From contig CAJXVW010000002.1 of assembly GCA_913062645.1 (NCBI GenBank), forward strand, positions 301,433 to 365,432: a stretch of DNA of 64,000 nucleotides, in the 5' to 3' direction. The notes beneath the pieces were generated by a model. That model ran no database searches. It saw only the letters and a list, made by a program, of their open reading frames with translations, and was not told the origin of the DNA. Source of the DNA: an uncultured Mycoplasmatota bacterium (GTDB lineage: Bacteria; Bacillota_I; Bacilli_A; Izemoplasmatales; Izemoplasmataceae). Positions 10,863 through 33,570 of the stretch are shown here, in pieces; within the stretch, counting starts at the first letter, position 1; each line of letters starts with the position of its first letter. The position numbers were made by a program, and so were the translations under genes.

Positions 10863-10873
10863 GGGGGAAATTT

Positions 10874-15450: not shown

Positions 15451-15502
15451 TAGACACTAGATATGCTGACGACTATGAGTTTATTATCCGGAGGTTTGTT
15501 GT

Positions 15503-16492
15503 ATGCCCTTCAACGTCATCCGTAACGACATCACCAAAATGCAGGTCGATGCCATCGTCAATTCCGCCCACCCCGAACCCGCCATTGGCGGCGGGGTGGA
15601 TTTCGCCATACACGAAGCTGGTGGTCCGGAGCTGGTGCAAGCCAGGATCGCCCTTGGTGACATTTTTGTCAGTGACATAAAAGTCACCAGGGGATACAAT
15701 CTTCCTAGCAAGTATGTGATTCATACTGTCGGACCGAGATGGGAATCCACGAACAAGAAGAAAGAAGATGAGTTGTATCGGTGTTATTACAACTCACTAA
15801 TGGAAGCAAGCAAGCTCGGTTGCGAATCGGTCGCACTGCCATTGATTTCCGCGGGAACCTACGGCTTCCCGCGTCATCTGTCGATGTCGATCTGCAACGA
15901 CGCGGTTCGTGATTTCCTCGAAGATCATGAGATCATGATCTATCTCGTCGTCTTCGATCAGGAATCCTACATCATATCCAACGAACTCTACAACACCATT
16001 GAAGAATTGATTCATTCGGATGCCGTCGTTCGTCAGATCGAGCGCGAAGTCGCCTATGGCGCACGGCGCCGGAAAGAACGATTGGAACGTCCGGTTCGCT
16101 TACGCACACAAAAGGTCATGCATGAAAGTGTCCGCTTCGATCCCAGAGACAACGACAAGTCCTTCCGCGACAAGCTGTTCGAACTGATCGATGACCGTGA
16201 CATGACGGATCCCGAAGTCTACAAGAAGGCGAACCTCACCCGCCAACACTTTTCCAAGATCCGCAGCAACAAGGACTATCATCCATCCAAATCGACGGTA
16301 CTCGCATTGTCCATCGCGTTGGAGCTGGACATCGATGAAACCGAGGACCTCTTATCCAGAGCAGGATACAGTTTGTCTTGGTCGTTGTCATTCGATCGGG
16401 TTGTCCGTATGTTCATAGAAGATGAGGTGTATGATATCTTCCTGATCAATGAAGCATTGTTGGAGTTTGATTTGGAAACAATTGGAATATAA
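15503..16492 (+). CDS. Macro-domain (ADP-ribose binding/hydrolase) protein with C-terminal XRE-like HTH
   Basis: Macro motifs AIVNSAH...GGGVDFAIHEAGG and ALPLISAGTYGFP. The C-terminus has ANLTRQHFSKIRSN...STVLALSIALELD. Composition is host-like rather than island-like. Confidence 0.8.
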   Translation: MPFNVIRNDITKMQVDAIVNSAHPEPAIGGGVDFAIHEAGGPELVQARIALGDIFVSDIKVTRGYNLPSKYVIHTVGPRWESTNKKKEDELYRCYYNSLMEASKLGCESVALPLISAGTYGFPRHLSMSICNDAVRDFLEDHEIMIYLVVFDQESYIISNELYNTIEELIHSDAVVRQIEREVAYGARRRKERLERPVRLRTQKVMHESVRFDPRDNDKSFRDKLFELIDDRDMTDPEVYKKANLTRQHFSKIRSNKDYHPSKSTVLALSIALELDIDETEDLLSRAGYSLSWSLSFDRVVRMFIEDEVYDIFLINEALLEFDLETIGI

Positions 16493-16544: not shown

Positions 16545-18080
16545 TCAAGCTTCATTATCACCTGCAGATAGTTGTGGTCTCTGAAAACTCTCAAACGTTG
16601 TGCTAATACTCTTCAGATGGTTGTCTATACGATCAATGATTACTTTATCAATCTTGCTTTTCACTTCTTCCAAACTTTCATCTTCTTTGTAAGTAATGAT
16701 GTTGGTAATCTTTATAGTTGTCCATTTTTTGGATGATTTGGTTTTTTGTTTTTCTTTTTGGTTATAATACTCAATCAGTTCATCTCTCTCGTAACCATCG
16801 GATGGACCAATAACGGTTGATAACTTCACATCTTTTTCTCTTATCTGTAGTTCATGAAGGAGGATTGAACCATCTTTCACCCAACCGTGTGATACATTCG
16901 GATACATACGATTGATTGATCGTAGTGTGTCATCCGTGAAGCGAACGATTCTCTTGACACAATGGTTTAACTCAATGTCGTTGAAGTCTGATAATTTTTC
17001 TTTTAGGTATTCAGATATTTCATAGATCATATCAGGTTTGTACTCATATATTAAGTCCAACGCCTTTTTGTGTTTATAGTATATCCTTCTGCATAGTTTC
17101 ATTAAATCTTCATCGGTCATAATATGTCTCCTTAAGATGTCTCGATAGTCTTTTAAAAAAGAAGAAACGGAATCGCTTGACTTTTGAATTACTCTATCTA
17201 CTTGTTCGATGATTCCATCATATGAGTAAGTACCCCAGGTATCAGGATCAGATGATTCATCTCCGTCTTTTGTCAAGTAGACGAATAACTGCTTAAAGTT
17301 GGAATACTTCTCTCGAACGATTTCCTTATACTTGTTTAGTTGGTTATGATGCTCGGTGGTATCTACTTTATTTTCAATTACAATTACAAGTTGATTTTCG
17401 CGATCAATTAGTAATATATCGATATTGTCTCTTTCTCTATATACCTCAGTTTGATCGTAGTCCCACAGGAAGATATCTTCCGTATGGATACCTTGCTCGA
17501 GATATAATTTCTTATTTCTAAGATAGACATCTCGAATGAATAATTGTATGAACATATCCCCAAGTTCATGCGACTCGTTCGGATTCAAAAGCCAACTTAA
17601 CACATTGGAATGTCTGATTTCATTTCTTACAATCGATAAGGTCTCGAATAGATTAAATTTAGTAATGTCTTGTAACTGATCAAGATCAGATATATTCTCA
17701 AGAAACTCTGTGACGTAGTTGTATTTCTTAGTGATATCCTCACTAGTAACATCGATTTCCAAAGATGATTCGTAGTCGCCAATTGCTCTACCATCCTCTA
17801 GTTTCCATTCATAGGTGCCAGCGGCCGGTCTACCACCAATCACAGCCGCAGCGGAACTTAAACTGTTAAACAGGTAATCCTCTTTTAGAACAAAAGTATT
17901 GTCAACTATCCCAGAATTTAGCATACGCTCTCTAAGTTTATTATAATGGTGGTTCTTAAAACTCTTTGAAATCGTTTTTTCAAAAATCGCACCTTTTTGT
18001 ACCTTGATATTTCTGTCTTCAGTATCGTAAGTACCCTGCGCAAGTGCGTTCTTCATTGATAAAGTCAGATTGATTTTCAT
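16545..18080 (-). CDS. DUF4357-like N-terminal domain fused to a PD-(D/E)xK nuclease-fold domain
   Basis: N-terminus: FNSLSSAAAVIGGRPAAGTYEWKLEDG (pattern F-SPS-AA-V-G---NG--W as I remember DUF4357). Middle: RHSNVLSWLLNP ... NIDILLIDRENQLVIVIENKV (D...E-x-K). Confidence 0.55.
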   Translation of the reverse strand: MKINLTLSMKNALAQGTYDTEDRNIKVQKGAIFEKTISKSFKNHHYNKLRERMLNSGIVDNTFVLKEDYLFNSLSSAAAVIGGRPAAGTYEWKLEDGRAIGDYESSLEIDVTSEDITKKYNYVTEFLENISDLDQLQDITKFNLFETLSIVRNEIRHSNVLSWLLNPNESHELGDMFIQLFIRDVYLRNKKLYLEQGIHTEDIFLWDYDQTEVYRERDNIDILLIDRENQLVIVIENKVDTTEHHNQLNKYKEIVREKYSNFKQLFVYLTKDGDESSDPDTWGTYSYDGIIEQVDRVIQKSSDSVSSFLKDYRDILRRHIMTDEDLMKLCRRIYYKHKKALDLIYEYKPDMIYEISEYLKEKLSDFNDIELNHCVKRIVRFTDDTLRSINRMYPNVSHGWVKDGSILLHELQIREKDVKLSTVIGPSDGYERDELIEYYNQKEKQKTKSSKKWTTIKITNIITYKEDESLEEVKSKIDKVIIDRIDNHLKSISTTFESFQRPQLSAGDNEA

Positions 18081-18185
18081 TTTGTTCTTACTCCTTTAAA
18101 CGGTCATATACAACGAATTTTGTTGAGCTTCCTTACGATCTCTCACAAAATTTGATGAAAGACTATCCTATATAACACTTATGAT

Positions 18186-19133
18186 TTATAAATAGTTCTT
18201 TGCAGACAAATTATCTAAATCAAAATCAATCGCTTTTTTTACTGACATCAATAGATCAGAAATCTCATTGTTTGAAATACTATCATAAATGCTAATTGCT
18301 GTGTAATAATTAATACTCTTAACATCATCAAGACCTAAAACATTAGTAACAATTGATCTTTTGTGATGATTCGAAAATGCTTTCGATATATAAATGTAGT
18401 CCCTAATGTACTTCTTGAATGCATTGACCCTTTCTTCAAGTTTAAATACTTCTAAATAATAAGGCGACATTTTATTTACTTGTATATGGAACTCATTAGT
18501 TTGAAGCTTAACTTGGTGTATCTTGGGTATAGCCTCTTTTTTGATTTTCAGACTGAACAACTCTGGTGGACAAATCTTATTAATGTCCTCTATCACTAGC
18601 TCTTTGTCATTTTTCAAAATCGAATTACATGTGTAACAGCTACAAACTAGATTCCCGTATGACATAGATAGTATTGGATATTTCGACATAGGGAAAACAT
18701 GGTCGAGAAAACCTGTATAGTGTTTTCTGTTTTTACCCCTAAATATATATCCAATTTGAGTTTGGCAATAATCACAGGTATATGATCCAAGCGAATTAAA
18801 TAAGAATTCAGCAGAAGAACTCTGATCATATTTATTGGCAAACGAGTCTTCAAGAAACTTAGTAATAATCTTCTTATTCTTGGTTTCTTTAGCGATTTTT
18901 CGTATAGTCATGTAATCTGAAAAAAACAAATCATATACCGTATAGTTAGAACTATAGCAATTCTTTATACGTCTTTTGTTGGGCAACTCGTGCAAGTAGA
19001 TATTTTTATATTGGTCTTCAATTGGCAGATCAGTAATTTGCTTCCGTTGGATAATTTCTTCTAGATGCTTCGGAATTCTTGAATTGCTTCGAAGCCCAAG
19101 TATGTATTGTTTGTATAAGTATTTATCTATCAT
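18186..19133 (-). CDS. HNH endonuclease, Septu PtuB-like
   Basis: CDYCQ ... LDHVFPMS ... NLVCSCYTCNSILKND matches the TIGR02646-like C-x2-C / DH / N / C-x2-C-N layout. The start overlaps the stop of the upstream ATPase gene. Confidence 0.5.
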   Translation of the reverse strand: MIDKYLYKQYILGLRSNSRIPKHLEEIIQRKQITDLPIEDQYKNIYLHELPNKRRIKNCYSSNYTVYDLFFSDYMTIRKIAKETKNKKIITKFLEDSFANKYDQSSSAEFLFNSLGSYTCDYCQTQIGYIFRGKNRKHYTGFLDHVFPMSKYPILSMSYGNLVCSCYTCNSILKNDKELVIEDINKICPPELFSLKIKKEAIPKIHQVKLQTNEFHIQVNKMSPYYLEVFKLEERVNAFKKYIRDYIYISKAFSNHHKRSIVTNVLGLDDVKSINYYTAISIYDSISNNEISDLLMSVKKAIDFDLDNLSAKNYL

Positions 19134-20859
19134 TATTAGCGACTATCCTTTCCAATGTACTTCTTAAAAAATCATCGCCAATCTGCTCAACACGCTTTAC
19201 ATCTTGCTCTGTATACTGATTGTTAATAATTCTTCTTATCAACTTCTCAGAATAAGCTCCTATAGTTGATTTAATGATTAAATTATCTACCGATATATCT
19301 CCTATGTGCTTGGCTATGGTCTTATTTGGATTGTTTCCAACATGTAAATGATCTAGATTACTTAAGTCAAGGATATTTGTTGATGGAATGTCAGAGATAA
19401 TATATGGTGAATGTGTTGAAATAATAAAATGGTAATTACACTTCACCCCTTGAAATATATTTGTGATGTCCTGAATGAGATTTCTAGATAACTCTGGATG
19501 AAGGGTTAAATCAGGTTCATCAATAAGAATATATATATCCTTAGCACCTACGCTACTATTGATATTGTCTTCAATAGCTATTTTGGATAGATCTAATAAA
19601 AGACTTGTGTAGTCCTCTTCTCCTTTTGATCCGCTAAAAAGATCTAGCGAGGTAAACATCCTTATCATCTCATTGTCGAACTCTTGATCAGAGAATGTAA
19701 CGCTTTCCTTAAAAAGATACCTGCGCGCAACGTCTTTGTCTTGAAGATTTTCAATCATATCTAAGAAATCATTATACTTATTCAGTACTCTTTCGTACAA
19801 AACATTAGAATCATCAAAAAGAACAATCGGTCCGTCACCTTTATCCTCAAACCTATTTATGCCTAAAGTACCGGCATAATTCAGTAATACTCTCAGATCT
19901 TCTTTTGCAATGTCAACACTAAATGAGTTTGTGTTATGAGACAAAACAGTAAGAATTTGACCCATGTCATTGATGAAGTCTTCGCCTGTTAATCTAGTAA
20001 TCAATCCTTGCTCTTCGAAAACATGTAGTCCACCAAAAAACTCCTTCACGATGTTAGTCATTAAAAATTCATACAAGTTGATATCTTTGTACTCTTTTTG
20101 ATTTAACATGGTATTAAACCCATAATACTCATCATATTCAATGTCGAAATTGAGCAAATAGTCTGATACTTCTTTTTCGAATTGCTTTTCCCTGTCAGCA
20201 TCTTTAGGGTATAGCTCATAACTCATTGGTTTGAATGATAAGCAAACAGCATCACTATCGAAGTTTCGAAGTTTCTCCTTTAAGAAAACCTTGTTCTGAA
20301 AAAAGAATATCAATCTCTCAAGTTGAGAGCTAATTCTTAATTTCTTTCTTCTAGTAAAATAGTATCCCCCATGAACTCGAGTATCTAAATCAATATTAGT
20401 GTAAATGGGTCCTCTATCTTTGGCTTGATCCATATCATATAAACGAACATAAGTTTCATATTCTTGCTTACTCCAAAAGGGTTTTGTAACAAATCCTCTG
20501 TCTTCCGAGTCATCTTTTCCATTGATAACTACATTTGGAGTTTTCTTATTTCCGGTATATCCTTCTAAATAGCACATTTCTCTATTATTTACGTAAACTA
20601 AAATATACTCATGTAAATATTTGAAGCTTAGCATCTCAAGAACTGTAGTCTTCCCGGCACCATTTATCCCTAATAGAGCTGTAAAATGGACATTATTGTC
20701 ATCTGTATGATAAAAGTCAAAGATACCAGTTTTCCTAGTGATGTTAATTATGAAATGATCTTCATCAATTTTACAATCTACATTATACTTCATGTCAAAC
20801 TGTATAAATTGATTATTGAAATTTCTTGCTTTAATTACATAAACCCCAATTAGTTTCAT
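19123..20859 (-). CDS. ABC/AAA_15-type ATPase, Septu PtuA-like
   Basis: Walker A LLGINGAGKTTVLE, Walker B IYILIDEPDLTLHP, and ISTHSPYI. No Toprim or nuclease domain seen. Overlaps the downstream HNH gene. Confidence 0.55.
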   Translation of the reverse strand: MKLIGVYVIKARNFNNQFIQFDMKYNVDCKIDEDHFIINITRKTGIFDFYHTDDNNVHFTALLGINGAGKTTVLEMLSFKYLHEYILVYVNNREMCYLEGYTGNKKTPNVVINGKDDSEDRGFVTKPFWSKQEYETYVRLYDMDQAKDRGPIYTNIDLDTRVHGGYYFTRRKKLRISSQLERLIFFFQNKVFLKEKLRNFDSDAVCLSFKPMSYELYPKDADREKQFEKEVSDYLLNFDIEYDEYYGFNTMLNQKEYKDINLYEFLMTNIVKEFFGGLHVFEEQGLITRLTGEDFINDMGQILTVLSHNTNSFSVDIAKEDLRVLLNYAGTLGINRFEDKGDGPIVLFDDSNVLYERVLNKYNDFLDMIENLQDKDVARRYLFKESVTFSDQEFDNEMIRMFTSLDLFSGSKGEEDYTSLLLDLSKIAIEDNINSSVGAKDIYILIDEPDLTLHPELSRNLIQDITNIFQGVKCNYHFIISTHSPYIISDIPSTNILDLSNLDHLHVGNNPNKTIAKHIGDISVDNLIIKSTIGAYSEKLIRRIINNQYTEQDVKRVEQIGDDFLRSTLERIVANNDR

Positions 20860-21140
20860 TATAAATCCCTTCCTCTCAAATTTCGTATCATATATATCCG
20901 TTAGCTTGAATTATCTAAACATTTGACTCAATATAGTCTGTCAAACTAATTTCAATATGTTTCACAACTATATTATATCACGAATCTCTATAAAAATGCG
21001 TTATATCTAGCACAACAGGAGATGCCGTAAAAACAGTCGTTATCATCTTGATAGTTTCTATAGCTTAGTCCTAATCGATGTTGAATGGTATGTGAACATG
21101 ACCAGTCTGATTACATTAAATGTCGCCTGCCAGGCGACCA

Positions 21141-21194
21141 GATCACTCCTTCGTTGTGGCATACTATAGTCATAAACCAAACGAAGGAGTGATT
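21141..21194 (+). promoter_or_regulatory. SD-sequestering hairpin in the leader of the vWA gene
   Basis: CACTCCTTCGTT (21144-21155) pairs perfectly with AACGAAGGAGTG (21180-21191), which contains the AAGGAG SD of ATG 21198. Confidence 0.4.
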
Positions 21195-21197
21195 TTC

Positions 21198-21842
21198 ATG
21201 AAACAAGATTTGACGGAAATGGTATTCATCCTGGATCGCAGCGGATCGATGGCCGGGTTGGAAAAGGATACCATTGGCGGATTCAACTCGATGATCGACA
21301 AACAGAAAGACCTCGACGGTGATGCGATTGTCTCGACGGTCCTCTTCGACAACCACTTCGAGGTCATCCACAACCGCGTGAATCTCAAAGACATCTCGCA
21401 CCTGACACACAAAGACTACTACGTACGTGGTTCTACTGCTTTATTGGACGCAATCGGGCGATCGATTCGAAAGATCCGTACGATCTACGCGGAAACCTTG
21501 CGTGAAGATCGTCCGGACAAGGTGATGTTCGTCATCACCACCGACGGCATGGAAAACGCCAGTCGCCAGTTCTCCTATCATGACATCCAGCACATGATAC
21601 AGGATGTCAAAGAGAAATACGGCTGGGAGTTCCTATTCTTAGGCGCCAACATCGACGCCGTCGGCGAAGCTCGTCGCTTCGGCATCGATGCCGACCGCGC
21701 CGTTCGGTACCACGCCGACAAGGTCGGCACCCAAGTCAACTACGAGGCAATCAACGATGCAGTGTCTTCCTATCGAATGAACAAGGCGATCTCGAAGGAA
21801 TGGAAACAAAAGGTCGAGGACGATTTTGAGAAGCGCAAGTAA
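21198..21842 (+). CDS. von Willebrand factor A (vWA) domain protein
   Basis: MIDAS motif VFILDRSGSM, plus GSTALLDAIG and ITTDGMENAS. Start moved to ATG 21198, behind AAGGAG. Confidence 0.75.
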   Translation: MKQDLTEMVFILDRSGSMAGLEKDTIGGFNSMIDKQKDLDGDAIVSTVLFDNHFEVIHNRVNLKDISHLTHKDYYVRGSTALLDAIGRSIRKIRTIYAETLREDRPDKVMFVITTDGMENASRQFSYHDIQHMIQDVKEKYGWEFLFLGANIDAVGEARRFGIDADRAVRYHADKVGTQVNYEAINDAVSSYRMNKAISKEWKQKVEDDFEKRK

Positions 21843-22148
21843 GTTCCGATCCATCACGAATTGAAATGGACTTAAAAACCGGACAGATTTGCCGTATTCT
21901 CACAAAACTCAGTATGATATGACCTTATGTGAACGTAGGGGATGACCGTACTACCGCCATCGCATGGCGGGGCAACGTGGTTGCCAGCGGATTCATGCGA
22001 AGGGGAAAACAGTTCGTCCAACACGAACTGTTTTTTCATTCCCCAGACACGACAAGACAAGCGATAGAACATGTCTCCCTCTTGATTGATTTTTGCCTTC
22101 GCTTGTCTTGTTGCATTTGAATGCTCGGCCCAACTACCACACAAAAGG

Positions 22149-22605: not shown

Positions 22606-22635
22606 TTGACTAATATGCTCTCCTTATGTTACCAT
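22606..22635 (+). promoter_or_regulatory. Promoter of GHKL cassette 2
   Basis: TTGACT, 18-nt spacer, extended -10 TGTTACCAT; AAGGAG SD at 22642-22647. Confidence 0.45.
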
Positions 22636-22656
22636 TAAATCAAGGAGTGATTTTAT

Positions 22657-22878
22657 ATGTCAAAAAAGCATGATAAATTCATTGATTTGGCCGAAAAGAG
22701 AGTCAATAATGCAATAAAGCAAATCCAATTAGTAGGAAACCTCTCAAACACATCATATTATGAATATGAGGATACAGAAGTCGATAAGATTTTTCGCACG
22801 CTCAAGAACGAGTTGAAAATCGCTCAAGATCGTTTTGCTAGTCGGCATCGCGAAGAGCCGAAGTTTAAGTTGAAGTAA
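22657..22878 (+). CDS. Small basic protein, copy 2 of the duplicated ~72-aa family
   Basis: 73 aa, homologous to 12124..12339 (see that entry). First gene of the cassette. Confidence 0.6.
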   Translation: MSKKHDKFIDLAEKRVNNAIKQIQLVGNLSNTSYYEYEDTEVDKIFRTLKNELKIAQDRFASRHREEPKFKLK

Positions 22879-22887
22879 TCTGTAACA

Positions 22888-24042
22888 ATGAGTAAACTAC
22901 ATCCATTCGTTAAGTGGCCAGGTGGTAAGTCATCAGAGTTAAAGGTTGTTTTACCAAACTTGCCAAACAATTTCAAAAGATTTTTTGAACCCTTTGTTGG
23001 AAGTGGCGCGGTCCTCTTTGCGCTATCAAATCAAGACTCTATCAAAAGCTTCGTGATCAACGATTTTTCCGAAGAACTATGTATGTTATACAAGTATGTA
23101 CAAGAATCAAACCAGCTTTTTCATAAATCTTTGATACTCCTAAGAGAGAACTGGTTGCAACTTGAAGCGGTTGTTGAAGCCCACAGTAATGAACTGCTAA
23201 ATTACTATTGTTCGTTCAAGCGCAACGGTGGTGATGAAGAGAAGCTCAACAACTCTTTTGAGTGCTTTCTTTACCAGCACGCTGCAGACTTCGGTGGAAT
23301 GTTATTAGACGATGAAAATCCCCATATCGAAAACCTCCGAAACGAGCTGTTAAAAACAATACGTAGAAAGTTCAAGCGAATGAGGCAGCTTGAAATGGAA
23401 TCTGGTTCATTCGATGAAACCATGTACATACCAAACATAGAAACAGTATTTAAGTCGGCATATTACACACATATTCGTCATCTATATAATAACCAAGAGA
23501 ACTTCAGTATTTCGCTAGAACGGCATATAGCTCATTTCTACTTTATCCGAGAGTACTGCTACTCCTCGATGTTTCGGTTTAACACTTCAGGTGGTTTCAA
23601 CGTGCCCTATGGAGGGATGAACTATAATCGAAAAGATTTCACGAAAAAGATTGATTACTTGAAAAGCATGGAACTGCTGCAGTTTCTGAAACAAGTTGAA
23701 ATATACAATCTCGATTTCGAAGAATTTTTAGGAGATTTCCAGATGGATGAATACGACTTCATATTTCTTGATCCTCCATATGATAGTGAATTTAACGAGT
23801 ACGATAGAAACTCGTTCAATCGAAAGGACCAAACCAGATTACGAGATTACCTGAAACAAACAAAAGCCAAATTTCTTTTAATCATCAAAAACACGGATTT
23901 TATTGATCAACTATACTCTAATCAAGGCTTTTACATCACTGGTTTTGATAAACGATATACGGTGAGTTTCATGAATCGGAACGAGCAAGATGTTGAGCAT
24001 TTGATTATAACAAACTACAAACTGCGAGGTGAAAAAGCATGA
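22888..24042 (+). CDS. Dam-family (D12 class) N6-adenine DNA methyltransferase with a long insertion
   Basis: FVKWPGGKS, FEPFVGSGAVLF (motif I) and FLDPPYDSEF (motif IV). At 384 aa it is clearly longer than classical Dam as I remember it. Confidence 0.8.
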   Translation: MSKLHPFVKWPGGKSSELKVVLPNLPNNFKRFFEPFVGSGAVLFALSNQDSIKSFVINDFSEELCMLYKYVQESNQLFHKSLILLRENWLQLEAVVEAHSNELLNYYCSFKRNGGDEEKLNNSFECFLYQHAADFGGMLLDDENPHIENLRNELLKTIRRKFKRMRQLEMESGSFDETMYIPNIETVFKSAYYTHIRHLYNNQENFSISLERHIAHFYFIREYCYSSMFRFNTSGGFNVPYGGMNYNRKDFTKKIDYLKSMELLQFLKQVEIYNLDFEEFLGDFQMDEYDFIFLDPPYDSEFNEYDRNSFNRKDQTRLRDYLKQTKAKFLLIIKNTDFIDQLYSNQGFYITGFDKRYTVSFMNRNEQDVEHLIITNYKLRGEKA

Positions 24043-24398
24043 AAAAACCACTATCTGAAAATGAAATTGCGAAAAAGGCAATTATTTTGGTTGGACTGGA
24101 TCCAAACATCAACACTTCAGAGCTCATTGAAAAGCTGGAGACGGTGTTTTATCCTCTTCATCCCCAGGATCAAGCAATACTCCAAGGCCGACGTGACAGT
24201 CATTTTTCGCAAAAGGTTCGGAATCTGAACTCCCATTACGATACCAATTTTTTCGGTAAACATGTGGACAAATCCGGCACCAGAGATAACGCCACAACTT
24301 GGATACTGAACCAGAGAGGTCGTAAGTTGTTCGAATCACTAATGACCCAATTGATCAAGAACAGTGGTGACATACTTGATAAAATCATTGAGAACTGA
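24039..24398 (+). CDS. Small protein, possibly winged-helix
   Basis: 119 aa. The ATG overlaps the methylase stop (ATGA). RRDSHFSQKVRNLNSH ... WILNQRGRKL resembles wHTH recognition segments; this is weak evidence. Confidence 0.4.
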   Translation: MKKPLSENEIAKKAIILVGLDPNINTSELIEKLETVFYPLHPQDQAILQGRRDSHFSQKVRNLNSHYDTNFFGKHVDKSGTRDNATTWILNQRGRKLFESLMTQLIKNSGDILDKIIEN

Positions 24399-24421
24399 AA
24401 CCTAAAAAGGAAGGTGATGCT

Positions 24422-26311
24422 ATGAAATGGAGATTCCCAGAGAATGCAACTGGTAGTGTCAAAGGGTTAAACGACCAGGTTGAGACCTTTATGAAAAATC
24501 CCTTGGGGTCGCTCGCAAAAGAAATTTGTCAGAACTCTCTTGATGAAATTCAAGACCTAGAGCAACCCGTTGAGATTCATTTTCAAACGTTTGACATGCC
24601 AACAAAAGACTACTTGGAGGGTATTCCCGAAACCCTTCAACAAGAGTTCAAATATTGGGATCAAAGACAAGAACACGACAAAAAAGTTCCCAATTTTTAT
24701 CAGCATGCACTCGATCTGATTTCCAAAGAAACGGTTCGATGCCTAAGAATAAGTGATTTCAACACCACGGGCCTCACTGGAAGCAAAGAAACCGATACAG
24801 GAAAATGGAATCATCTAATCAAGTCCACTGGTGTGTCTGATAAAAAGGGTGGACAGCTCGGAAGTTTTGGTCTCGGTAAGTTCGCTCCATTCGCTAACTC
24901 GAGTTTCAGAATGGTATTCTACAGCACCAAAGACACAGAGGGTTTAGAGGCCACACAAGGTGTCGCTCGATTGTCCAGTTTCCGTGAGGACTCGGGCCGT
25001 CTTCGCGATGGTTTGGGTTATTATTGTGCCGATGAGGATTATTCGGCAATCAATAAGTGGCTATCGCTCGATTCAGAATACACAAGAACCAGCGCTGGAA
25101 CCGATGTATTCATTGTCGCATTTAATGGAGGCGAAGATTGGATTGATCAATTGATCCAATCACTCTTGGACAACTTCATTTTTTCGTTTTTATGGAACAA
25201 GCTCATCGTTTCAATCAATGGCAAGCTTATCAATAATAGCAACATTCATACGATAATCGATGAGGCGAAATCAAAAGAAAAAATCGACCCCCTGACCTGT
25301 GATTATTATGAGTCGCTTATGGGGGCTGACAAACACCATTTCATGAAAACCATCTTCCAAAAAAATGATGTTGAACTGGTCATGAAACTAAAGAAAGGTC
25401 TAGGTCGAAAAGTCGCAATTGTAAGAAATAACGGAATGAAGATATTCGACAAGGATCGAATTTCGGCAAGGGCGCAATTCGCTGGAGTATTGACCTTGAG
25501 TGGTGAAAAAGTTAACTCCTATTTCAAACGCCTGGAAGATCCCACACATAGCGCCTGGGATCTAAGCAGAGCCCCAAATCCGAAAGATGCCGAAAACAAG
25601 CAAAAGCAAATATATGGTTTCATCAACCAGTGCTTCAACTCACTAATTGACAAAGAGCGGCCGGATACGATGGACGCCATAGGAGCAGGTGAATTTCTGC
25701 CTGATTTCGGAGACTTGAATAGCGACAAACAACCCGCTGAGAGTCTCACAGATCGAATCATCAAGGACCTAGAAGTCAAACGATCCAAACCTAGAAATCC
25801 AAACCGCGCGGACACCCAAGAAGACAATGATGATGGGACCAATATCGACACTGGAGAGCTCGGTTCGGCTGATCCAGACGGCAACGTATTGGTAGACAAA
25901 CCCGGTGATTTGGGTACTGGCGGATCGGGAACGCATGATATTGGCAGTGATACTGAAAAGGGATCCAAAGATGATGATGGGGATAGGCACGTTCTTGAAA
26001 AATCAAAGATTCATGACATTGATGTGAAATTCCGTGTAGTTCGTTTTGGGAGCGGTTTGCGAATCAATATTATACCAAAATTCGATATATCTGTTGGTGA
26101 ACTCGAGTTGTTCTCATCTGGCGAAAACGTGAAGGATCCGATCAACGTTCTTTCTGCTAAATCTGATAAGTCCAAACTGAAAGTTCTCAAGCAAAACGGC
26201 GTTGAGGTAACAAATCTTAAGCGGGATGTCGCGAACTTTGTATATGTCGAACTAGAGCGTGAATTTGGATATGCAGTGGAGGTTAGCCTATATGAAATTA
26301 AACAAAAATAG
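24422..26311 (+). CDS. GHKL (Bergerat-fold) ATPase-like protein, 629 aa, with an acidic low-complexity region
   Basis: AKEICQNSLDE (N-box), ISDFNTTGLTG (G1) and GGQLGSFGLGKF (G2). A D/G-rich segment lies around nt 25800-25990. Confidence 0.5.
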   Translation: MKWRFPENATGSVKGLNDQVETFMKNPLGSLAKEICQNSLDEIQDLEQPVEIHFQTFDMPTKDYLEGIPETLQQEFKYWDQRQEHDKKVPNFYQHALDLISKETVRCLRISDFNTTGLTGSKETDTGKWNHLIKSTGVSDKKGGQLGSFGLGKFAPFANSSFRMVFYSTKDTEGLEATQGVARLSSFREDSGRLRDGLGYYCADEDYSAINKWLSLDSEYTRTSAGTDVFIVAFNGGEDWIDQLIQSLLDNFIFSFLWNKLIVSINGKLINNSNIHTIIDEAKSKEKIDPLTCDYYESLMGADKHHFMKTIFQKNDVELVMKLKKGLGRKVAIVRNNGMKIFDKDRISARAQFAGVLTLSGEKVNSYFKRLEDPTHSAWDLSRAPNPKDAENKQKQIYGFINQCFNSLIDKERPDTMDAIGAGEFLPDFGDLNSDKQPAESLTDRIIKDLEVKRSKPRNPNRADTQEDNDDGTNIDTGELGSADPDGNVLVDKPGDLGTGGSGTHDIGSDTEKGSKDDDGDRHVLEKSKIHDIDVKFRVVRFGSGLRINIIPKFDISVGELELFSSGENVKDPINVLSAKSDKSKLKVLKQNGVEVTNLKRDVANFVYVELEREFGYAVEVSLYEIKQK

Positions 26312-27158
26312 ACTCTACCTATATCCGGTTCTGCACGAACTGAGAGATGACTATTTGGAAGACTCAAAGTTTTCTGTGGTTATTGAAGCAAAACAGCGTA
26401 CCACGAGTGTCGATTTGAGCGTGACATTTACGGTAAACGATAACCTGATTGAACAATATATAAGGGAAGAGAAATTCTTGCAGATCGTTCACGTCGAATG
26501 TCCGAAAACCAAGTTGAGGACTATACACCGAATCAAGAGTGACGAGATAAAAATCGATGTCAGTATACCTTCTGGTTTGCTTAATGGTGTAGTTGAAATT
26601 TCACCAATGATTATCTCCAACTATACCGGCCCTTACTACAATCCGAACTTCTCAGATGATTACAATGGTTTGGATATAGAATTGTCAATAGGCAATATTG
26701 TGGCATATGATGATACGCGGTACTTCTATGTTGAGAAAGATCGCATGGAATACGTTGACGTTGAATCGGTGTTCGTCTTGAACCGGACAAAAAACAATCA
26801 CATGATAATTGATGTAACCAGTGGTGATAAAATTGTTGTCGACCTTCCAAATGAAATCTATGCAAGTTATTTTGCCTTGGATGATGAAATCAATCGAACC
26901 ATCTCTTTGCAGATGATCATTTATCCCGCAGTTATCAAAGCGCTTGAAATGCTTGCAAATGAAGAGACCCGTTCACATGTCAAACATAAAAAGTGGTATC
27001 TCACCTTCAAAAATCAGCTGGCCAAGTACGATTATGACATCGATTCTAACTCATTGTCCGACATGGACGAGAAGTACGTTGCGGCACAAAAATTGCTCGA
27101 AGATCCTCTTCTTAGATCATACATTGAACTTACCAAGCTCCAGGAGGGATTATCATGA
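26292..27158 (+). CDS. Hypothetical protein (288 aa), cassette 2
   Basis: ATG 26292 lies behind GGAGG and overlaps the GHKL stop by 20 nt. I recognise no motifs. Confidence 0.45.
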   Translation: MKLNKNRLYLYPVLHELRDDYLEDSKFSVVIEAKQRTTSVDLSVTFTVNDNLIEQYIREEKFLQIVHVECPKTKLRTIHRIKSDEIKIDVSIPSGLLNGVVEISPMIISNYTGPYYNPNFSDDYNGLDIELSIGNIVAYDDTRYFYVEKDRMEYVDVESVFVLNRTKNNHMIIDVTSGDKIVVDLPNEIYASYFALDDEINRTISLQMIIYPAVIKALEMLANEETRSHVKHKKWYLTFKNQLAKYDYDIDSNSLSDMDEKYVAAQKLLEDPLLRSYIELTKLQEGLS

Positions 27159-27907
27159 GACTCAAGATATTCCGAGAAGATCCTTTGATTATTTTCAGGC
27201 GGAAGTCTCAAATAAAAGAAAACATTCAATTCTACTCTGAAACGGACAATGATTGGCAACAAATGATGATCGATCAGCCCTTGTTCCAAGAGTTCGGCAA
27301 GCAACTGCAGCCGATTGAACTCGACATGAGTTTTTCCGAACCGAACAAGTCCGATGTCGTCAACGCAAAGATCATTTATGAGGCATTGAGCTTTCTGAGT
27401 GACAGCCAAGCATCGGAGGAACGACTTTGGGCCGCATTGTGTCATGATATGTTTTGGGATTACATGCAGTATCGATGGCCCCTTTCTTTGACCAAGCGTT
27501 CAGAGGTAAACTATGTTTTGGCACATTATTTCTTCTCCGAACCGTCTAGAGGTCGTTATTTCAATGGCATTTCGAGATTGTGGTGGTTTGCTAGGAGCAC
27601 ATATGATCGAACCAGAGAGAACCCCTACGAAGTATTGGAATATTTCGGCGGCGACCTTAGTGGTAAATTGTATCCTCTACTTGCCGGTCATAATTACTCA
27701 AGCAACCCCATTATCATGCGGCAGTTCATGGATGGTCTGTTCGAATATGAGAAGTCACTTGGTGAGCAGGTAGGAAGAAAACAATTTAGCTACCTTACGA
27801 AAAGGTTGGACCTGTATTCAGGCGGAGTGCAACCAGATCTGTTGGCTGAACAAGGATTACTCAAAGACATCGTGATTGAAATCCTGCATGAGTTCGAATC
27901 CCGATAA
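27155..27907 (+). CDS. Hypothetical protein (250 aa), last gene of cassette 2
   Basis: ATGA start/stop overlap with the preceding gene. Trp/aromatic-rich (ERLWAALCHDMFWDYMQYRW) with no catalytic motif recognised. Confidence 0.45.
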   Translation: MRLKIFREDPLIIFRRKSQIKENIQFYSETDNDWQQMMIDQPLFQEFGKQLQPIELDMSFSEPNKSDVVNAKIIYEALSFLSDSQASEERLWAALCHDMFWDYMQYRWPLSLTKRSEVNYVLAHYFFSEPSRGRYFNGISRLWWFARSTYDRTRENPYEVLEYFGGDLSGKLYPLLAGHNYSSNPIIMRQFMDGLFEYEKSLGEQVGRKQFSYLTKRLDLYSGGVQPDLLAEQGLLKDIVIEILHEFESR

Positions 27908-28089
27908 ATCTCCGTCTGTTAGCTTGTTCGTTTCGATTTGACAACATCTGCACACAGACGAGCTATCCCTATGTTAATAATGCAGACTGGAGTAATTAAA
28001 TTATTTCCAAAGATCTCAGTTTGACATTTTCTAGCAGACTAAGTTATGTTATTATATTAATAGAATTGCGGTTATGTAAGGAGAAAAAA

Positions 28090-28236: not shown

Positions 28237-31200
28237 ATGAATAAAAATGATCTAAATGCGGCTGTTGAGTCATGGAAAGCGCTTAATGAGAACTCAATTA
28301 TTAAATTAGATGAAATGGTCTCCAAGTTGAATAAGGGCTTAATTCCATCAGAAAAGCAAATCTCCGATTTGGTTTCTGGATTATCAGAGTGGGATATAAT
28401 CAGAGTTCGAATCAAAGATTATATATCATCCATTCAAAAGGATGGAAATATAGACACAATAACTCTAGAGGAGTTCACAAAGCTTTCTGATGAGTACATC
28501 AGCTCTTTTTTTGAAGCCTCCTCTAGAATTACAGATATTCTTGAACAGTTCATCCATGTGAAATCAGACGAGCAATATTTTGATGCGGCGATTGAGGAAT
28601 CTCGTAACGACGCAAAAGCATTACTCGAGAAGGTTCCCGACGCCAAATCACCAGAAAATATCGAAACCCTAGTTAAACAGACGGAGATCTACGATTACTT
28701 CATTAAAGCAATCCGGATTGTGGCAGAAAATGTAAAAACGAAGTCTGAAGTACTAAATATGATACCGAGCCTCTTCTCTCCCGATGTAACTCGGGGAGTG
28801 TATACGAACATGTACTACATTGATCAAGACAACACCGCAACTAGATTGGATAAGACATCCGAAACCAATGACTCATCTGACGCCAGTGAACCATCCGCGG
28901 ATACCAATGAAAATAAGGTTGACCTAGTCAAAATCGTCAAAGGTAAGAGAAAAAAAATCAAGGTCTCATCCTTTAAAGGTGATATGGAAAGCCATATTCA
29001 CTATAAGATTTTCGTGACAATTGGAACATATAAGGTTATGAGTCTTGATCAATTGTGTTATGTGGTGAATGATGAATCCAAAAATAATTATGATGAAGAA
29101 TATATTTCTGCGATCGCAGGATCATTGATTAGTCGAGGACACCTATATGAGCTTGAAGTGGCGGGTCTCAAAGAAAATGTATATGTCGTATCCACATATT
29201 CCCGGGAAGCTTTTGACAAGGCAAGTATAAAAGATAGACTGTTCAGTTATTCCAACTTCGGATATCCCGAAGTGTTCAAGATCCCCTTATGGGAAAAAAC
29301 GGGAGCCCCCGAGGCTCGATCACATTACTACAATACAGCGGCTGTAATACAATATGGCAAGTTGATTCAACAATTGTATGATCATACACCAGAACGAAGC
29401 GAAGCAATGAAACACTTGGTGGCCTACGCAGAGAATTTCGCTCTTAAGTTCAATGATGAAGAGGGAAATAAACAAACCGCGGCAATCATTGGTTATGATA
29501 TGTTACTTGATGATCAGATTGATATGCTATCGAATGAGGAAAATCCGATTAGTGTCGCTATTTTGATTGATGAATCACAAATCGAAAACTGCAAATCCGC
29601 TCTAAAACCCCATATGAGTGACTTCATCAATAGGGCTTTCTTGATAACAACTGAGCATGGTTCTGTTTTCCAATATCGTAATGAAGCCCTTACTGAGATT
29701 GGTACCATTTTTAACATGTTCAATGATTCCGCCAAGCCAAAAAGATCCAAGAAGTCCAAAACCCAGCTTCAAGATGAGACTGGCCGTCAGAGGGAAGAGA
29801 TTACATCAGGCCACACTCAATCCACATCAAAACAAAAGGATAAAGCAACGGAAGAGAACAAGAAATCAATTGAAAAAGAATCTACTCAGAAACCAAGTGT
29901 TCCAAAAAAGAAACAAGAAAAATCCTCATCGAAGGAACAGCTTGATTTAAAAGCAATCGCAAGTCAAATAATCGAAAACAATGAGGACTTCGAGATCTGC
30001 AACGTTCAGTTGAGTGACTTGATATGGACAACCATTCAAGAAGGCCGGGTTCCCGAAGCATTGGTACTGACCAAAGCCATCATCGAATCCAACAAAACCA
30101 GCGATAAATGTGAAGAGTTCACTGCCGTCTATGATTGGTTCCGCCACTCCATCAACAATAATCTTGATGAACTCAAATATACTAGTGCTAATATTGAAGA
30201 ACTCGATTTATACGACATTTCCGATTCACTTATCCCAACCAAAATACTATCCACAATGAAGCAATTGGCATTAATTTGGGCAATGCTCCGCCCAACCAAA
30301 AAATACGACCACGGATTCAGAGATAACCATAAGGAGATTATGGACGTAAATACCGGAGTGAGCCTGAAAAGCATTCACCATTTGCTTCACAATATGCATT
30401 TAAACAACGAGATGATGTCCGGATTCTCAAAATCTATCGTATCACTCTTGGAATCGAATCGAGACAGAAACATTGTTCAATCAGATTTTGCAAAACGGGC
30501 AAGCCATTTACAGATTGTCCCATCTCCCACCCAAAGAATCAAAAACCTTCATATCGTATACAAGAATGCTTTCGGAAAATCCTCACCATTATACGAACTG
30601 CTTTCACTCGTTAGAGACAATGCCTCAGATGGTATTGAGAAACTATCGAAATCCTCATTTTATAAAGTTGTACACCATCATGAGATGGATGACACGACCA
30701 TTGAGATTAACAATCACGAGGTTGAAGAGTTCATTTTGAACGAGTGGAACAAAGTTCGTGGTGACTTTGACTTGGAAAACTCCGCATATAAAAATATAAA
30801 GAGTCACATTGTAAGAAGACTCGAGTTGACCATCGATTGGTATGAGCATGCCAAGAACAACAATGTCCTAAATACCAAGATTCTCAACAAGTTCGATTCT
30901 GTCAGACAGCGGGTAATCGGTGCCATTCTTAACATTCACAACAAAATTGAATCAAGTTCGAGAAAACCGAATCCAGTTGTTGCCCAACTCGTCCGCTTTT
31001 CAACGAATCGTATGAAAGACTATCTCCAAGGTGTCTCAAACCAAAACGATTATTTGAACTTCTATAAAACGCCATACGTTTTGATGATTGATCAAATTCC
31101 CGACTTCAAAGCTGAGTTTATCTCAGTAACGGGTTATGAACCTTGGCGTTTGATTGTGAAACACCTAGCAACTGATTTACTTGATCTAGAAGATGCGGCT

Positions 31201-33570
31201 CATGCAATAGACAAAAGGGATAATCCTCATTGGTACTGTAATTACGGTCAGCTGGAACAGATTCATGACATATTGAACCCAGACAAAGACATAACTGACT
31301 TTGAAATGGCAAAAAAAGCTGCTGACAAGTACGCAGACCATAAGTACCAAGAATTTTGCAACGAAGTTGAAATGGCATTTGCGCTATTTCGAATCAACGA
31401 ATCACAAACGGAGTATCTAACTTCACTTGCAGACCGCAATAAAGATTATTTCGTCCAATATTCTGAAGCCGGCAAATTCGTCTTTTTCCTAGAAACGCTG
31501 GAAAAGCAAATCCAGATTGCAACACTCAAGAAACAAGAACTGTTCATGCAACGGTTTAGAAAAATCGAGCTGAATATCGACAAAACTGATAATAATATTG
31601 AAAAAGTCTTATCCATAACGAAAAACTGGATAGATAAGGGTAACTTCACAGTTGCTGAAGAATATCTCAATAGTCTCGCATCCGGTGAGGCCGAACTTAT
31701 ATTTGAAAGCATTCAGAACATCGAGTTCACGAACTATCGCAACGACTTCTTTGATAAACATCATCAACTAGCTCGTGCATGCTCTGCGAATTCAGGGAAA
31801 CGCCTCGCCAGTTTTGGTGCAGATGTCATTTCTTCATATCAGCCAAAGACATCAAAAAGTCAGTTCAATAAGACTGTTCGTAACATCACTGGCAACTGGC
31901 CGCGCATAACCAAAAACGAAGGCAGCTCAGGCTCTTATGCAAAATCAGAAAACGATATTAGAGATCTAATGAAGGTTTTAGGTTTCAGCGCAACAACTGC
32001 AACATATGACATAGCACATCGAAAAAATTACAGCAACTCATATGATGTCGATGTAGTTGCTACCAATGTCATCTTACCAAACTTCAGCCATCCGATTCCT
32101 GAGTTTGGTACCCAAATGACAGAGTTCGTAAAAGTCTTGGCGATATTTGGCGATCGAGGAAACAAAGGCATCACGACTGACATAAGCAATCTTCTTTCTT
32201 CAAGTCCGACGATAGTATTGATTGACAGGGCCCTAAAACTTAGTGACAGAAGAGAAATAGCTGAACTTGTGAAAGGGAACTCCCTCAATATTCCTCAACC
32301 TTTCATCTTAATCGACTGGGTACTGGCATTGTATCTCTGTACAGTTGTTGAGAGCGATCGGATGGCTGCTCTACTTCAATGCTCACTTCCCTTCACCAAT
32401 GTGATGCCATTTGTCAAACTTTCCGGAAAAGTAGCGGACGAAATGTTCATTGGTAGAAGCGACCAATTAAAAGACATCCTTTCCAAGAACGGTAGCAAGT
32501 TGGTCTACGGGGGAAGACAACTGGGCAAGACTGCGTTGTTAAGACGCGCTCAAAGCCTTAAAAACAATCCTGAAAACAAGGTTTACGCTTTGTATTTGGA
32601 AGCGAAGAACATGAACGAGGAAAAATTAACTCAAGAATTAAGTGAACTATTCTTGAAGAACGAGCTATACGTAACGGGTAGTTCAAAAGTCAAAACCATC
32701 GAAGAGTTCTTCAAAAAACTAGATGACATATGGGACAACCAAATCTCGGAACTTCACTTATACATAGACGAAGCAGATGCATTTCTTGATGAATGTTCAA
32801 AAGATGGCTATCAGTTGTTGAATCACTTCATAAAACTGGCTTCAAACAGAAATTTCCGTTTTGTGTTCGCTGGATTGCATGATGTTCTGCGATCACACAC
32901 TGGAACTTCACATAACTCCTCATTACCCCAACTTGGTGATCCACTCGCTATCAAACCACTATCACCATTCGAAGGGTTTAGTCTTCTCGCAAAACCATTA
33001 TCATTCATGGGCATAGATCTAGAGTATGAACAAGCAGCTTTGATACTTGCAAACTCAATGTACTATCCTGGCATCATTCATTTGCTTGGGTATTCCTTAG
33101 TAAACTCGATTTCTGAGCAATACAAATCAAAATTTTATGATGCACAAAACAATCCACCGTATTTTGTCAATGCAATCAACCTCAAGAAAATATTCCGTAA
33201 TGAAAACATAAATGACAAAATCAAGGAACGTTTGGATATGACGCTGGATCTTGAAAAACCAATTATGCCTTATCGAAAGATTGCTGCTGTTTTCTCATAC
33301 CTTTATCACACTGACAAGGACATCGTTGGTTCTGATGGAATTCCCATTGAGCGCATCATGAATTTCATCAAACAGCAAAAAGTACCTTCCATCAAAGATT
33401 TGTCAGCTCCGGGGTTAAAGAATCTATTGCTTGAAATGGTAGGCATGGGGATATTGGCAAGCAACATTAATGATACCAAGTTCATGTTGCGCAAAACTAG
33501 ATTCCGTGACCTCATAGCTCGAGATGATATGGAAGCTATGGCAATGATCGATCCGGAGTTAAGCCAGTGA
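28237..33570 (+). CDS. Giant (1777 aa) protein with a C-terminal P-loop NTPase (Arch_ATPase/AAA+-STAND-like) module
   Basis: FIGRSDQLKDIL...LVYGGRQLGKTALLRRAQ (Walker A, about nt 32500-32540) and LHLYIDEADAF (Walker B, about nt 32755-32785). A Lys-rich disordered stretch lies around nt 29730-29940. The N-terminal ~1300 aa are helical and unrecognised. Confidence 0.55.
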   Translation: MNKNDLNAAVESWKALNENSIIKLDEMVSKLNKGLIPSEKQISDLVSGLSEWDIIRVRIKDYISSIQKDGNIDTITLEEFTKLSDEYISSFFEASSRITDILEQFIHVKSDEQYFDAAIEESRNDAKALLEKVPDAKSPENIETLVKQTEIYDYFIKAIRIVAENVKTKSEVLNMIPSLFSPDVTRGVYTNMYYIDQDNTATRLDKTSETNDSSDASEPSADTNENKVDLVKIVKGKRKKIKVSSFKGDMESHIHYKIFVTIGTYKVMSLDQLCYVVNDESKNNYDEEYISAIAGSLISRGHLYELEVAGLKENVYVVSTYSREAFDKASIKDRLFSYSNFGYPEVFKIPLWEKTGAPEARSHYYNTAAVIQYGKLIQQLYDHTPERSEAMKHLVAYAENFALKFNDEEGNKQTAAIIGYDMLLDDQIDMLSNEENPISVAILIDESQIENCKSALKPHMSDFINRAFLITTEHGSVFQYRNEALTEIGTIFNMFNDSAKPKRSKKSKTQLQDETGRQREEITSGHTQSTSKQKDKATEENKKSIEKESTQKPSVPKKKQEKSSSKEQLDLKAIASQIIENNEDFEICNVQLSDLIWTTIQEGRVPEALVLTKAIIESNKTSDKCEEFTAVYDWFRHSINNNLDELKYTSANIEELDLYDISDSLIPTKILSTMKQLALIWAMLRPTKKYDHGFRDNHKEIMDVNTGVSLKSIHHLLHNMHLNNEMMSGFSKSIVSLLESNRDRNIVQSDFAKRASHLQIVPSPTQRIKNLHIVYKNAFGKSSPLYELLSLVRDNASDGIEKLSKSSFYKVVHHHEMDDTTIEINNHEVEEFILNEWNKVRGDFDLENSAYKNIKSHIVRRLELTIDWYEHAKNNNVLNTKILNKFDSVRQRVIGAILNIHNKIESSSRKPNPVVAQLVRFSTNRMKDYLQGVSNQNDYLNFYKTPYVLMIDQIPDFKAEFISVTGYEPWRLIVKHLATDLLDLEDAAHAIDKRDNPHWYCNYGQLEQIHDILNPDKDITDFEMAKKAADKYADHKYQEFCNEVEMAFALFRINESQTEYLTSLADRNKDYFVQYSEAGKFVFFLETLEKQIQIATLKKQELFMQRFRKIELNIDKTDNNIEKVLSITKNWIDKGNFTVAEEYLNSLASGEAELIFESIQNIEFTNYRNDFFDKHHQLARACSANSGKRLASFGADVISSYQPKTSKSQFNKTVRNITGNWPRITKNEGSSGSYAKSENDIRDLMKVLGFSATTATYDIAHRKNYSNSYDVDVVATNVILPNFSHPIPEFGTQMTEFVKVLAIFGDRGNKGITTDISNLLSSSPTIVLIDRALKLSDRREIAELVKGNSLNIPQPFILIDWVLALYLCTVVESDRMAALLQCSLPFTNVMPFVKLSGKVADEMFIGRSDQLKDILSKNGSKLVYGGRQLGKTALLRRAQSLKNNPENKVYALYLEAKNMNEEKLTQELSELFLKNELYVTGSSKVKTIEEFFKKLDDIWDNQISELHLYIDEADAFLDECSKDGYQLLNHFIKLASNRNFRFVFAGLHDVLRSHTGTSHNSSLPQLGDPLAIKPLSPFEGFSLLAKPLSFMGIDLEYEQAALILANSMYYPGIIHLLGYSLVNSISEQYKSKFYDAQNNPPYFVNAINLKKIFRNENINDKIKERLDMTLDLEKPIMPYRKIAAVFSYLYHTDKDIVGSDGIPIERIMNFIKQQKVPSIKDLSAPGLKNLLLEMVGMGILASNINDTKFMLRKTRFRDLIARDDMEAMAMIDPELSQ

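Follow-up and report, generated by a model that had tools for sequence, protein, structure and literature searches.

A six-gene Dam methylase/GHKL ATPase cassette of an Izemoplasmatales bacterium contains the candidate defence module PDC-M33

We analysed a 64,000-nucleotide (nt) stretch of contig CAJXVW010000002.1 from an uncultured Mycoplasmatota bacterium of the order Izemoplasmatales (hereafter the window; coordinates count from its first letter). A six-gene cassette within it, encoding among others a Dam-class methylase and a GHKL ATPase, is very probably a defence system, as judged from its island context, the embedding origin of its core PDC-M33, the carriage of related modules on mobile elements and their linkage to methylases. 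Across genomes, the conserved core consists of the small basic protein s73, the GHKL ATPase and the proteins B and C, i.e. of PDC-M33 and a previously unlisted small gene. The link to DNA methylation is supported statistically and phylogenetically, yet it is not universal. A preliminary description, made from the sequence alone, had considered that the cassette fits no defence system with a name; profile searches, however, return PDC-M33 A, B and C, a computational candidate. The features of the cassette, all on the forward strand, are given below (ORF, open reading frame; aa, amino acids; RBS, ribosome-binding site).

22606-22635, +, promoter-like site: TTGACT, 18-nt spacer with TG, TACCAT (weak consensus match)
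~22642, +, RBS AAGGAG ahead of s73 (good RBS by sequence)
22657-22878, +, s73, basic protein of 73 aa (ORF listing)
22888-24042, +, D12/Dam-class N6-adenine DNA methyltransferase of 384 aa (ORF listing, profiles)
24039-24398, +, g3, accessory protein of 119 aa, specific to the window's clade, possibly DNA-binding (ORF listing, homologues)
24422-26311, +, GHKL ATPase with predicted transducer domain, PDC-M33A, 629 aa (profile, AlphaFold2 (AF2), Foldseek)
26292-27158, +, B, PDC-M33B, 288 aa from ATG, 299 aa from an upstream GTG (PADLOC, AF2)
27155-27907, +, C, PDC-M33C, Pfam DUF6339, 250 aa (PF19866, PADLOC)

The six same-strand ORFs, their junctions and the quoted motifs are all present as first described. 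Gaps of 9 nt and 23 nt separate s73 from the methylase gene and g3 from the GHKL gene, stop and start codons overlap as ATGA at 24039/24042 (methylase/g3) and 27155/27158 (B/C), and the GHKL and B genes overlap by 20 nt (26292/26311). The promoter-like region reported upstream does contain a site at 22606-22635, but such sites are no commoner in the region than in shuffled sequence (35 observed, 33.5 expected), so that it is weak evidence. The guanine-plus-cytosine (GC) content is 40.7% for the cassette, 39.5% for the surrounding island of ~40 kb (8-48 kb) and ~52% outside it. The same low-GC island also holds restriction-modification (RM), PDC-S26 and Septu-like genes, and a 329-nt gap with another promoter-like site lies between the C gene and the next ORF.

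A conserved four-gene core with a GHKL ATPase

To place the cassette among its relatives, homologues were sought by tblastn; locus counts refer to 80 related GTDB loci unless stated, and single loci are cited by L numbers. Protein B was detected in 79 loci, C in 73, s73 in 42 and the Dam methylase in three. These counts, together with the position of s73, define s73-GHKL-B-C as the core. The preliminary description had proposed to examine whether s73 and the GHKL gene stay neighbours in other genomes, and they do: of the 42 loci with s73, 41 have it on the same strand as GHKL and 0-22 nt ahead of it (E 1e-32 to 1e-40 with hidden Markov models). The exception is L048, with s73 2.9 kb upstream of GHKL. 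The insertion in L048 lies at the s73/GHKL junction, where the window has its Dam methylase and g3, so that genes may have been inserted repeatedly at this point. The 73-aa protein is basic, as stated before (isoelectric point (pI) 9.4), and has no match in Pfam, PADLOC, NCBIfam or PHROG; the other core proteins likewise have no PHROG match.

The cassette is a real co-conserved unit and more than a chance assembly, because the gene set is conserved together elsewhere: the full six-gene set recurs in two other lineages. Locus L082 has the gene order of the window (s73, D12 methylase, g3, GHKL, B; identities 71, 64, 72, 57 and 58%). In L085-L087, s73 (72 aa, 58% identity in L085), a g3 homologue (132 aa, 58%), GHKL, B and C are accompanied by a convergent D12 methylase (38%). 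The six-gene unit of the preliminary description thus stands for these lineages, but the wider conserved unit is the four-gene core only, the Dam methylase and g3 being confined to the small clade that includes the window.

The 629-aa protein carries the motifs EICQNSLDE at residue 34, DFNTTGLTG at 112 and GSFGLGK at 147. No Pfam family (E <= 0.1), NCBIfam entry or PDB sequence profile matched it. Its AF2 model, built from a 91-sequence alignment, reached a predicted local distance difference test (pLDDT) score of 82, and Foldseek matched this model to TRAP1/Hsp90 (1e-9), TopoVI-B (6e-8) and MORC3 (1e-7) as well as MORC4 and SMCHD1, the five targets spanning E 1e-9 to 1e-4 with alignments of roughly 440-480 columns. 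Residues E34, N38, D41, D112, G117, G147-K153, E372 and H376 are invariant in the 91 GHKL sequences. Because of these matches and invariant motifs, the earlier GHKL call is confirmed at the level of the predicted structure: the protein is modelled as a Bergerat-fold ATPase with a transducer domain, resembling Hsp90, TopoVI-B and MORC. What had been described as an acidic tail turned out to be internal, residues 417-513 forming a disordered acidic and glycine-rich linker (pI 4.1) that is followed by a folded C-terminal beta-sandwich (~520-629).

All three PDC-M33 proteins of the window match their profiles end to end and are encoded adjacently, in the order A-B-C and on one strand. The PDC-M33A profile aligns to the ATPase with E 5.2e-174 (residues 2-625 on profile positions 4-625 of 627). 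The 288-aa and 250-aa proteins, in which nothing had been recognised before, match PDC-M33B (1.6e-60) and PDC-M33C (4.8e-64) in PADLOC, and the latter also DUF6339 (PF19866, 4e-43). PDC-M33 is one of 145 "guilt-by-embedding" candidates drawn from genes that lie inside BREX, DISARM and Type I RM loci; none of these candidates was experimentally tested in that study (Payne et al. 2024, bioRxiv 10.1101/2024.01.29.577857). The published model differs from the window in that it has three genes and lacks s73, the methylase and g3, whereas in the window the Dam methylase and g3 stand between s73 and GHKL.

The absence of an obvious nuclease, noted in the preliminary description, holds for the whole cassette, as none is recognisable in it. 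B was modelled with a pLDDT of 92 as an N-terminal beta-sandwich and a C-terminal helical bundle, and Foldseek gave only generic FnIII/Ig-like PDB matches (E >= 1.7e-3); B is therefore not a recognisable nuclease, and the confident model led us to reject a PD-(D/E)xK nuclease in particular. The B family comprises 1755 representative clusters at 50% identity, and among the 150 clusters listed the protein is ~290 aa long and stands alone in nearly every case, with no larger fusions. For C, neither a PDB profile match nor a secondary Pfam signal was obtained; residues N70, A86, R90, W92, R107, L142-W144, D151, G223 and D228 are invariant. Just as for GHKL, Pfam and PDB sequence profiles had missed g3 and B. 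The DUF6339 protein is the sole candidate left within the module for a catalytic subunit, and it could be a new nuclease.

More than 700 relatives of the GHKL ATPase, none of them named, are present in databases, and 312 GTDB species genomes encode a relative. The core module is common in Bacillota from gut, oral and environmental sources, in Fusobacteria, in Bacteroidota and in other groups. The module moves as a block across phyla, with Mob_Pre, DUF3987 and integrase genes as neighbours, and 24 plasmid records carry it. Viral contigs with the module are rare (5 loci). One of them is the temperate Clostridium innocuum phage NatCom_9291 (L089, PV036421.1; 1907-9912), in which the four-gene module lies directly beside the integrase gene, with a gene for a C5 methylase fused to a helix-turn-helix (HTH) domain 1 kb downstream; an AAA_5 ATPase is encoded as well. 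Many other copies are chromosomal islands without nearby mobility genes. L081 (1-11299), a metagenome contig close to the window's clade, carries first the end of one module (GHKL C-terminus, B, C). Behind it lie genes for an HNH endonuclease of 146 aa and for a Sigma70_r4-containing protein of 907 aa that resembles the c7 protein described below, neither with a counterpart in the window. Next are a divergent second set of GHKL, B and C and an ORF of 641 aa that is still open at the contig end and has no blastp similarity to the window GHKL; thus two tandem paralogous modules share one contig.

Methylases beside the core

The preliminary description had assigned the 384-aa protein to the Dam family, with a long insertion, and profiles agree: PF02086 (5.3e-32) and TIGR00571 (7e-46) match above their cut-offs, and PADLOC returns MTase_II (4e-58) together with other Type II and orphan methylase profiles. 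The protein carries KWPGGK at residue 9, FEPFVGSGAV at 33 and FLDPPY at 293, and its catalytic motifs I and IV are intact. DpnM (2dpm) is matched in two blocks (1e-25), between which the window methylase has ~110 extra residues. In the Dam/D12 enzyme class the zone of this insertion is the target-recognition region. Besides L082 and L085, homologues occur beside the module in L049/59/68 (48-49% identity).

The g3 protein gave no match in Pfam, PADLOC, NCBIfam, PHROG or PDB profile searches, and tblastn found it in none of the 80 GTDB loci. Its homologues in L082 (118 aa) and L085 are each encoded directly upstream of GHKL, and with identities of 72 and 58% no protein of the window's clade is better conserved than g3, so that a decaying remnant is unlikely. 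A motif of the type QxVRNLxSHxD is common to g3 and the N-terminal part of the NOV_C protein of L049, although the hhalign comparison of the two was not significant.

Flanking ORFs of the related loci were clustered and annotated to find further neighbours. The density of small methylases is 1.81 per 10 kb up to 1.5 kb from the core and ~0.07 per 10 kb between 1.5 and 10 kb, an enrichment of ~25-fold over a baseline that is itself taken from the flanks of the same defence-rich loci. A methylase lies within 1.5 kb of the core in 22 of 40 fully flanked loci, and at least three families are involved (C5, Dam, and N6_N4 with a RAMA domain). C5 methylases form two clusters (23 and 13 loci) and Vsr is also frequent; N6_N4 methylases with RAMA were found in 3 loci, Dam methylases in 3 loci as well as the window's clade, and some loci have large Eco57I-type enzymes. 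The window methylase sits within the operon, with the 9-nt gap at its 5' end and the ATGA overlap at its 3' end. Furthermore, methylase family and position are constant within clades of a neighbour-joining tree of the GHKL domain:

window's clade: Dam methylase and g3
sister pair: N4/N6 methylase
one clade: Dam methylase and NOV_C
several clades: C5 methylase upstream, with Vsr and the c7 protein
a further clade: C5 methylase upstream only
Veillonella clade: C5 methylase downstream
large clade: convergent C5 methylase and HTH_3 gene

The pairwise identities of the long C5 methylases (C5L) follow those of GHKL closely (r = 0.93, Mantel p 0.0005; 20 loci, 38-99% identity), and in the same set the values are r = 0.91 for GHKL and C and r = 0.98 for GHKL and B. 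The neighbours of the C5L methylases are only an XRE-type HTH (HTH_3) regulator and mobility genes, and no recognised restriction enzyme was found beside them. A core with a convergent methylase and HTH gene is the layout of classical RM systems. The term methylation-linked, applied earlier to the window cassette, thus has statistical and phylogenetic support, but about a third of the loci have no dedicated methylase and some methylases come with a restriction enzyme of their own.

An accessory protein of 925-1100 aa, c7, is encoded directly downstream of C in L040, L042, L051, L063, L067, L069, L070, L075 and L077. It combines a sigma-70 region-4-type HTH (PDB profile match to SigA, 3e-10) with alpha-CTD-like "SxRAKNxL" repeats and always occurs in C5-methylase clades; the window has no c7.

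Relation to known systems and proposed function

None of the six proteins matches BREX, DISARM, Dnd/Ssp, Mza, Gabija or Lamassu profiles of PADLOC, in agreement with the preliminary description; specifically, there were no matches to PglZ, BrxC and PglX or, at E <= 0.1, to MzaA-E, DrmA-E and mad1-8. Like BREX, MADS and MANTIS, the cassette joins a methylase to an ATPase and lacks a classical or immediately obvious restriction enzyme. It differs from them in its GHKL rather than AAA+/P-loop ATPase and its small Dam-type methylase, and the helicase-nuclease MtsD is also absent from the matches. MADS was considered as the identity of an eight-gene operon that would include the two downstream genes g7 and g8, and was rejected, since MADS spans 22 kb and encodes a kinase and a specificity subunit beside its Type I-like methylase, and no mad gene was matched. 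Lactococcal AbiR and other abortive infection (Abi) systems were discarded for want of a PADLOC match.

The earlier reference to Iyer, Abhiman and Aravind (2008) proved apt, as the ATPase has the ExxxH signature of paraMORC2. These proteins occur mainly in Gram-positives and cyanobacteria and carry ExxxH at the C-terminal end of their S5 domain (Iyer, Abhiman, Aravind 2008, PMC2292703); for GHKL+S5 proteins of this type, a role in RM systems with DCM/Vsr was predicted (PMC2292703). The window ATPase likewise joins GHKL to an S5/transducer domain, with ExxxH present as EDPTH (the invariant E372 and H376), and the family shares the Gram-positive-rich, laterally mobile spread and the cytosine/adenine methylase and Vsr neighbourhoods. 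We therefore call it paraMORC2-like, a designation that follows the published description of features. In contrast, the published account stresses superfamily II (SF-II) helicase and restriction-endonuclease (RE)-fold nuclease partners for MORC/paraMORC operons generally (PMC2292703), whereas here the partners that recur are B with its beta-sandwich, DUF6339 and s73, and a helicase is missing. Other bacterial GHKL proteins in defence or RM-rich contexts are VcSduA of Shedu type I-D (paraMORC3) and the Response_reg_2 + HEF_HK pair, the latter being linked to C5 methylases as the module is. VcSduA, however, is a single protein fused to a DUF4263 PD-(D/E)xK nuclease, while the window GHKL ends in a beta-sandwich and has no DUF4263 match. 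HEF_HK proteins carry HATPase_c_3/HEF_HK/HATPase_c domains, none of which was detected in the window protein; neither it nor its neighbours matched HATPase_c_3, HEF_HK or Response_reg_2 in Pfam at E <= 0.1.

With classical Type II/III RM systems the cassette shares a methylase that is inherited together with a non-methylase module, the convergent methylase and HTH genes of many clades and a mobile life in islands. It differs in having no recognisable endonuclease or helicase, and in that its "R" side is a four-protein ATPase complex which is conserved while the methylase family changes. Our preferred explanation, held tentatively and with slightly less than even confidence, is that the cassette is a horizontally acquired, methylation-linked, RM-like defence operon in which the methylase provides self-marking for the GHKL complex. 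The methylase would mark host DNA at its own site, probably not GATC because the recognition region is enlarged. GHKL, B (a beta-sandwich/helical adaptor), C and s73 would form an ATP-dependent complex acting on unmethylated incoming DNA, the GHKL dimer closing on DNA upon ATP binding in the manner of MutL, MORC and Topo VI-B. The g3 protein, confined to the Dam-linked clade, could supply site recognition or regulation. As for the effector step, DUF6339 might be a new nuclease, otherwise the complex would act without cutting.

The main rival, possible though on the unlikely side, is that s73-GHKL-B-C is an autonomous, methylation-independent defence system (e.g. a sensor/abortive infection or DNA-targeting device with a trigger of its own) for which nesting among DNA-modification genes is habitual. 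The Dam methylase and g3 would then be a separate embedded cassette, an orphan methylase with a DNA-binding remnant or a regulator of a former restriction enzyme. Several observations weigh against self-marking or favour this account, among them the definition of PDC-M33 itself as three genes embedded in other systems. About a third of the loci (~27 of 80, a central group mostly without detectable s73) have no small methylase nearby, and some of these, such as the copies on Lactobacillus salivarius megaplasmids, are simply nested in a Type I RM locus; in L048 (6862-13428) a complete pair of a C5 methylase and a FokI-cleavage-domain protein separates s73 from GHKL. In L049/59/68 the Dam homologue adjoins a nuclease-like NOV_C protein with the g3-type motif in its N-terminal part, EcoRII-C and NgoFVII-like enzymes accompany the methylases of the Veillonella clade and a Sau3AI-like enzyme that of Priestia; adjacency can therefore reflect nested independent RM systems. 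Moreover, one restriction machine serving three unrelated methylase folds would need its specificity re-matched each time. Since recent transfer connects many of the 80 loci, the counts are not independent events, and the correlation between s73 and methylases among loci was computed without phylogeny correction. In addition, no nuclease family or fold was recognised in s73, g3, GHKL or B (Pfam and PADLOC for all, Foldseek for GHKL and B), and the literature on PDC-M33, DUF6339, paraMORC2 and GHKL defence yielded no experimental study of the module. On the other hand, g3 is too well conserved in its clade for a remnant, the Dam methylase of L085 stays with the core even after moving to its other side, the divergence of the solitary C5L methylases follows that of GHKL down to 38% identity and is as tightly coupled to it as that of C, and the local methylase enrichment holds against flanks that are themselves rich in defence genes.

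The block transfer across phyla, beside mobility genes and on plasmids, would also suit a maintenance or addiction module of mobile elements, in which the methylase and GHKL complex cause post-segregational killing upon loss of the element, as classical RM systems do. We consider this improbable: it is compatible with defence and needs the same putative methylation-dependent toxicity, and many copies are chromosomal and far from mobility genes. A role in DNA repair or epigenetic housekeeping, as a MutL-like GHKL machine that aids Vsr/Dcm very-short-patch repair or methylation-directed processing, is very improbable. Vsr and C5 methylases are indeed frequent neighbours, E. coli MutL stimulates Vsr, and a possible recruitment of such proteins to repair was noted by Iyer et al.; the window's clade, however, has an adenine methylase and no Vsr, and the module is patchily distributed, horizontally transferred, low in GC and embedded in defence loci. 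Furthermore, sequence searches (Pfam, PDB profiles) found no MutL-type C-terminal endonuclease or mismatch-recognition partner.

A doubtful but far-reaching version of methylation-linked defence would dispense with a nuclease altogether. Invading DNA without the mark of the partner methylase would be topologically entrapped or compacted by the paraMORC2 clamp together with B, DUF6339 and s73, and would thereby be silenced or blocked in its replication; clade-specific readers such as g3 would couple the clamp to its travelling methylase. If this were true, the system would be a bacterial counterpart, and possibly an ancestor, of eukaryotic MORC/SMCHD1 methylation-linked silencing.

The in-operon Dam methylase, g3, s73 as a fourth core gene and a sharper hypothesis are new here; the system is not categorically new, because the core had been catalogued as a candidate before and a link of its ATPase family to RM had been predicted in 2008. 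If the methylation link of the preferred RM-like reading is functional, the module would represent another large family for epigenetic discrimination of self and non-self, with a GHKL instead of a P-loop motor and no known nuclease. It would then also make the 2008 prediction of an origin of MORC-type ATPases in restriction systems directly accessible to experiment, and bear on how such ATPases read DNA methylation. The window version is convenient to clone, since the methylase lies inside the operon of a compact 5.3-kb cassette.

Other genes of the island

Further features of the low-GC island are listed below.

8108-12025, +, Eco57I/IIG-like N6 methylase (582 aa), C5 methylase (351 aa, MTase_II 5e-103) and HNH/Type IV-like endonuclease (383 aa)
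12360-16492, +, 776-aa and 269-aa proteins (no family match), then a Macro-domain + HTH protein (PF01661 3e-31)
16545-20859, -, PDC-S26 candidate (2e-108) with an N-terminal PDC-S14-like domain, then a Septu-like/PDC-M62 pair
21120-21842, +, 240-aa ORF just upstream of the cassette (1-kb bin 21001-22000 with ~49% GC, above the island)
28237-34700, +, g7 (1777 aa) and g8 (377 aa; start overlaps the g7 stop) (ORFs)

The genes g7 and g8 were considered as cassette members and excluded, since they are absent from related loci (homologues in 0 of 80 by tblastn), g7 is unrelated to c7, and both lie beyond the 329-nt gap with its promoter-like site (28021-28050), which is their own. Neither has a PADLOC match, and Pfam gives only a weak, sub-threshold AAA_22 signal (8.7e-6, g7 residues 1419-1550) of a P-loop/STAND-like NTPase. 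Together the two may form an uncharacterised defence pair of their own. Just upstream of the cassette, the 240-aa ORF belongs to no Pfam family at E <= 0.001 and contains a DRSGSM stretch that by eye resembles a vWA MIDAS motif.

At the left island edge, the genes at 8108-12025 look like an RM cluster with two methylases, and those at 12360-16492 could be another candidate conflict module. The Septu-like/PDC-M62 pair consists of a 578-aa ATPase and a 315-aa HNH-like protein, and the PDC-S14-like N-terminal domain is found again at 45060-46325 on the reverse strand.

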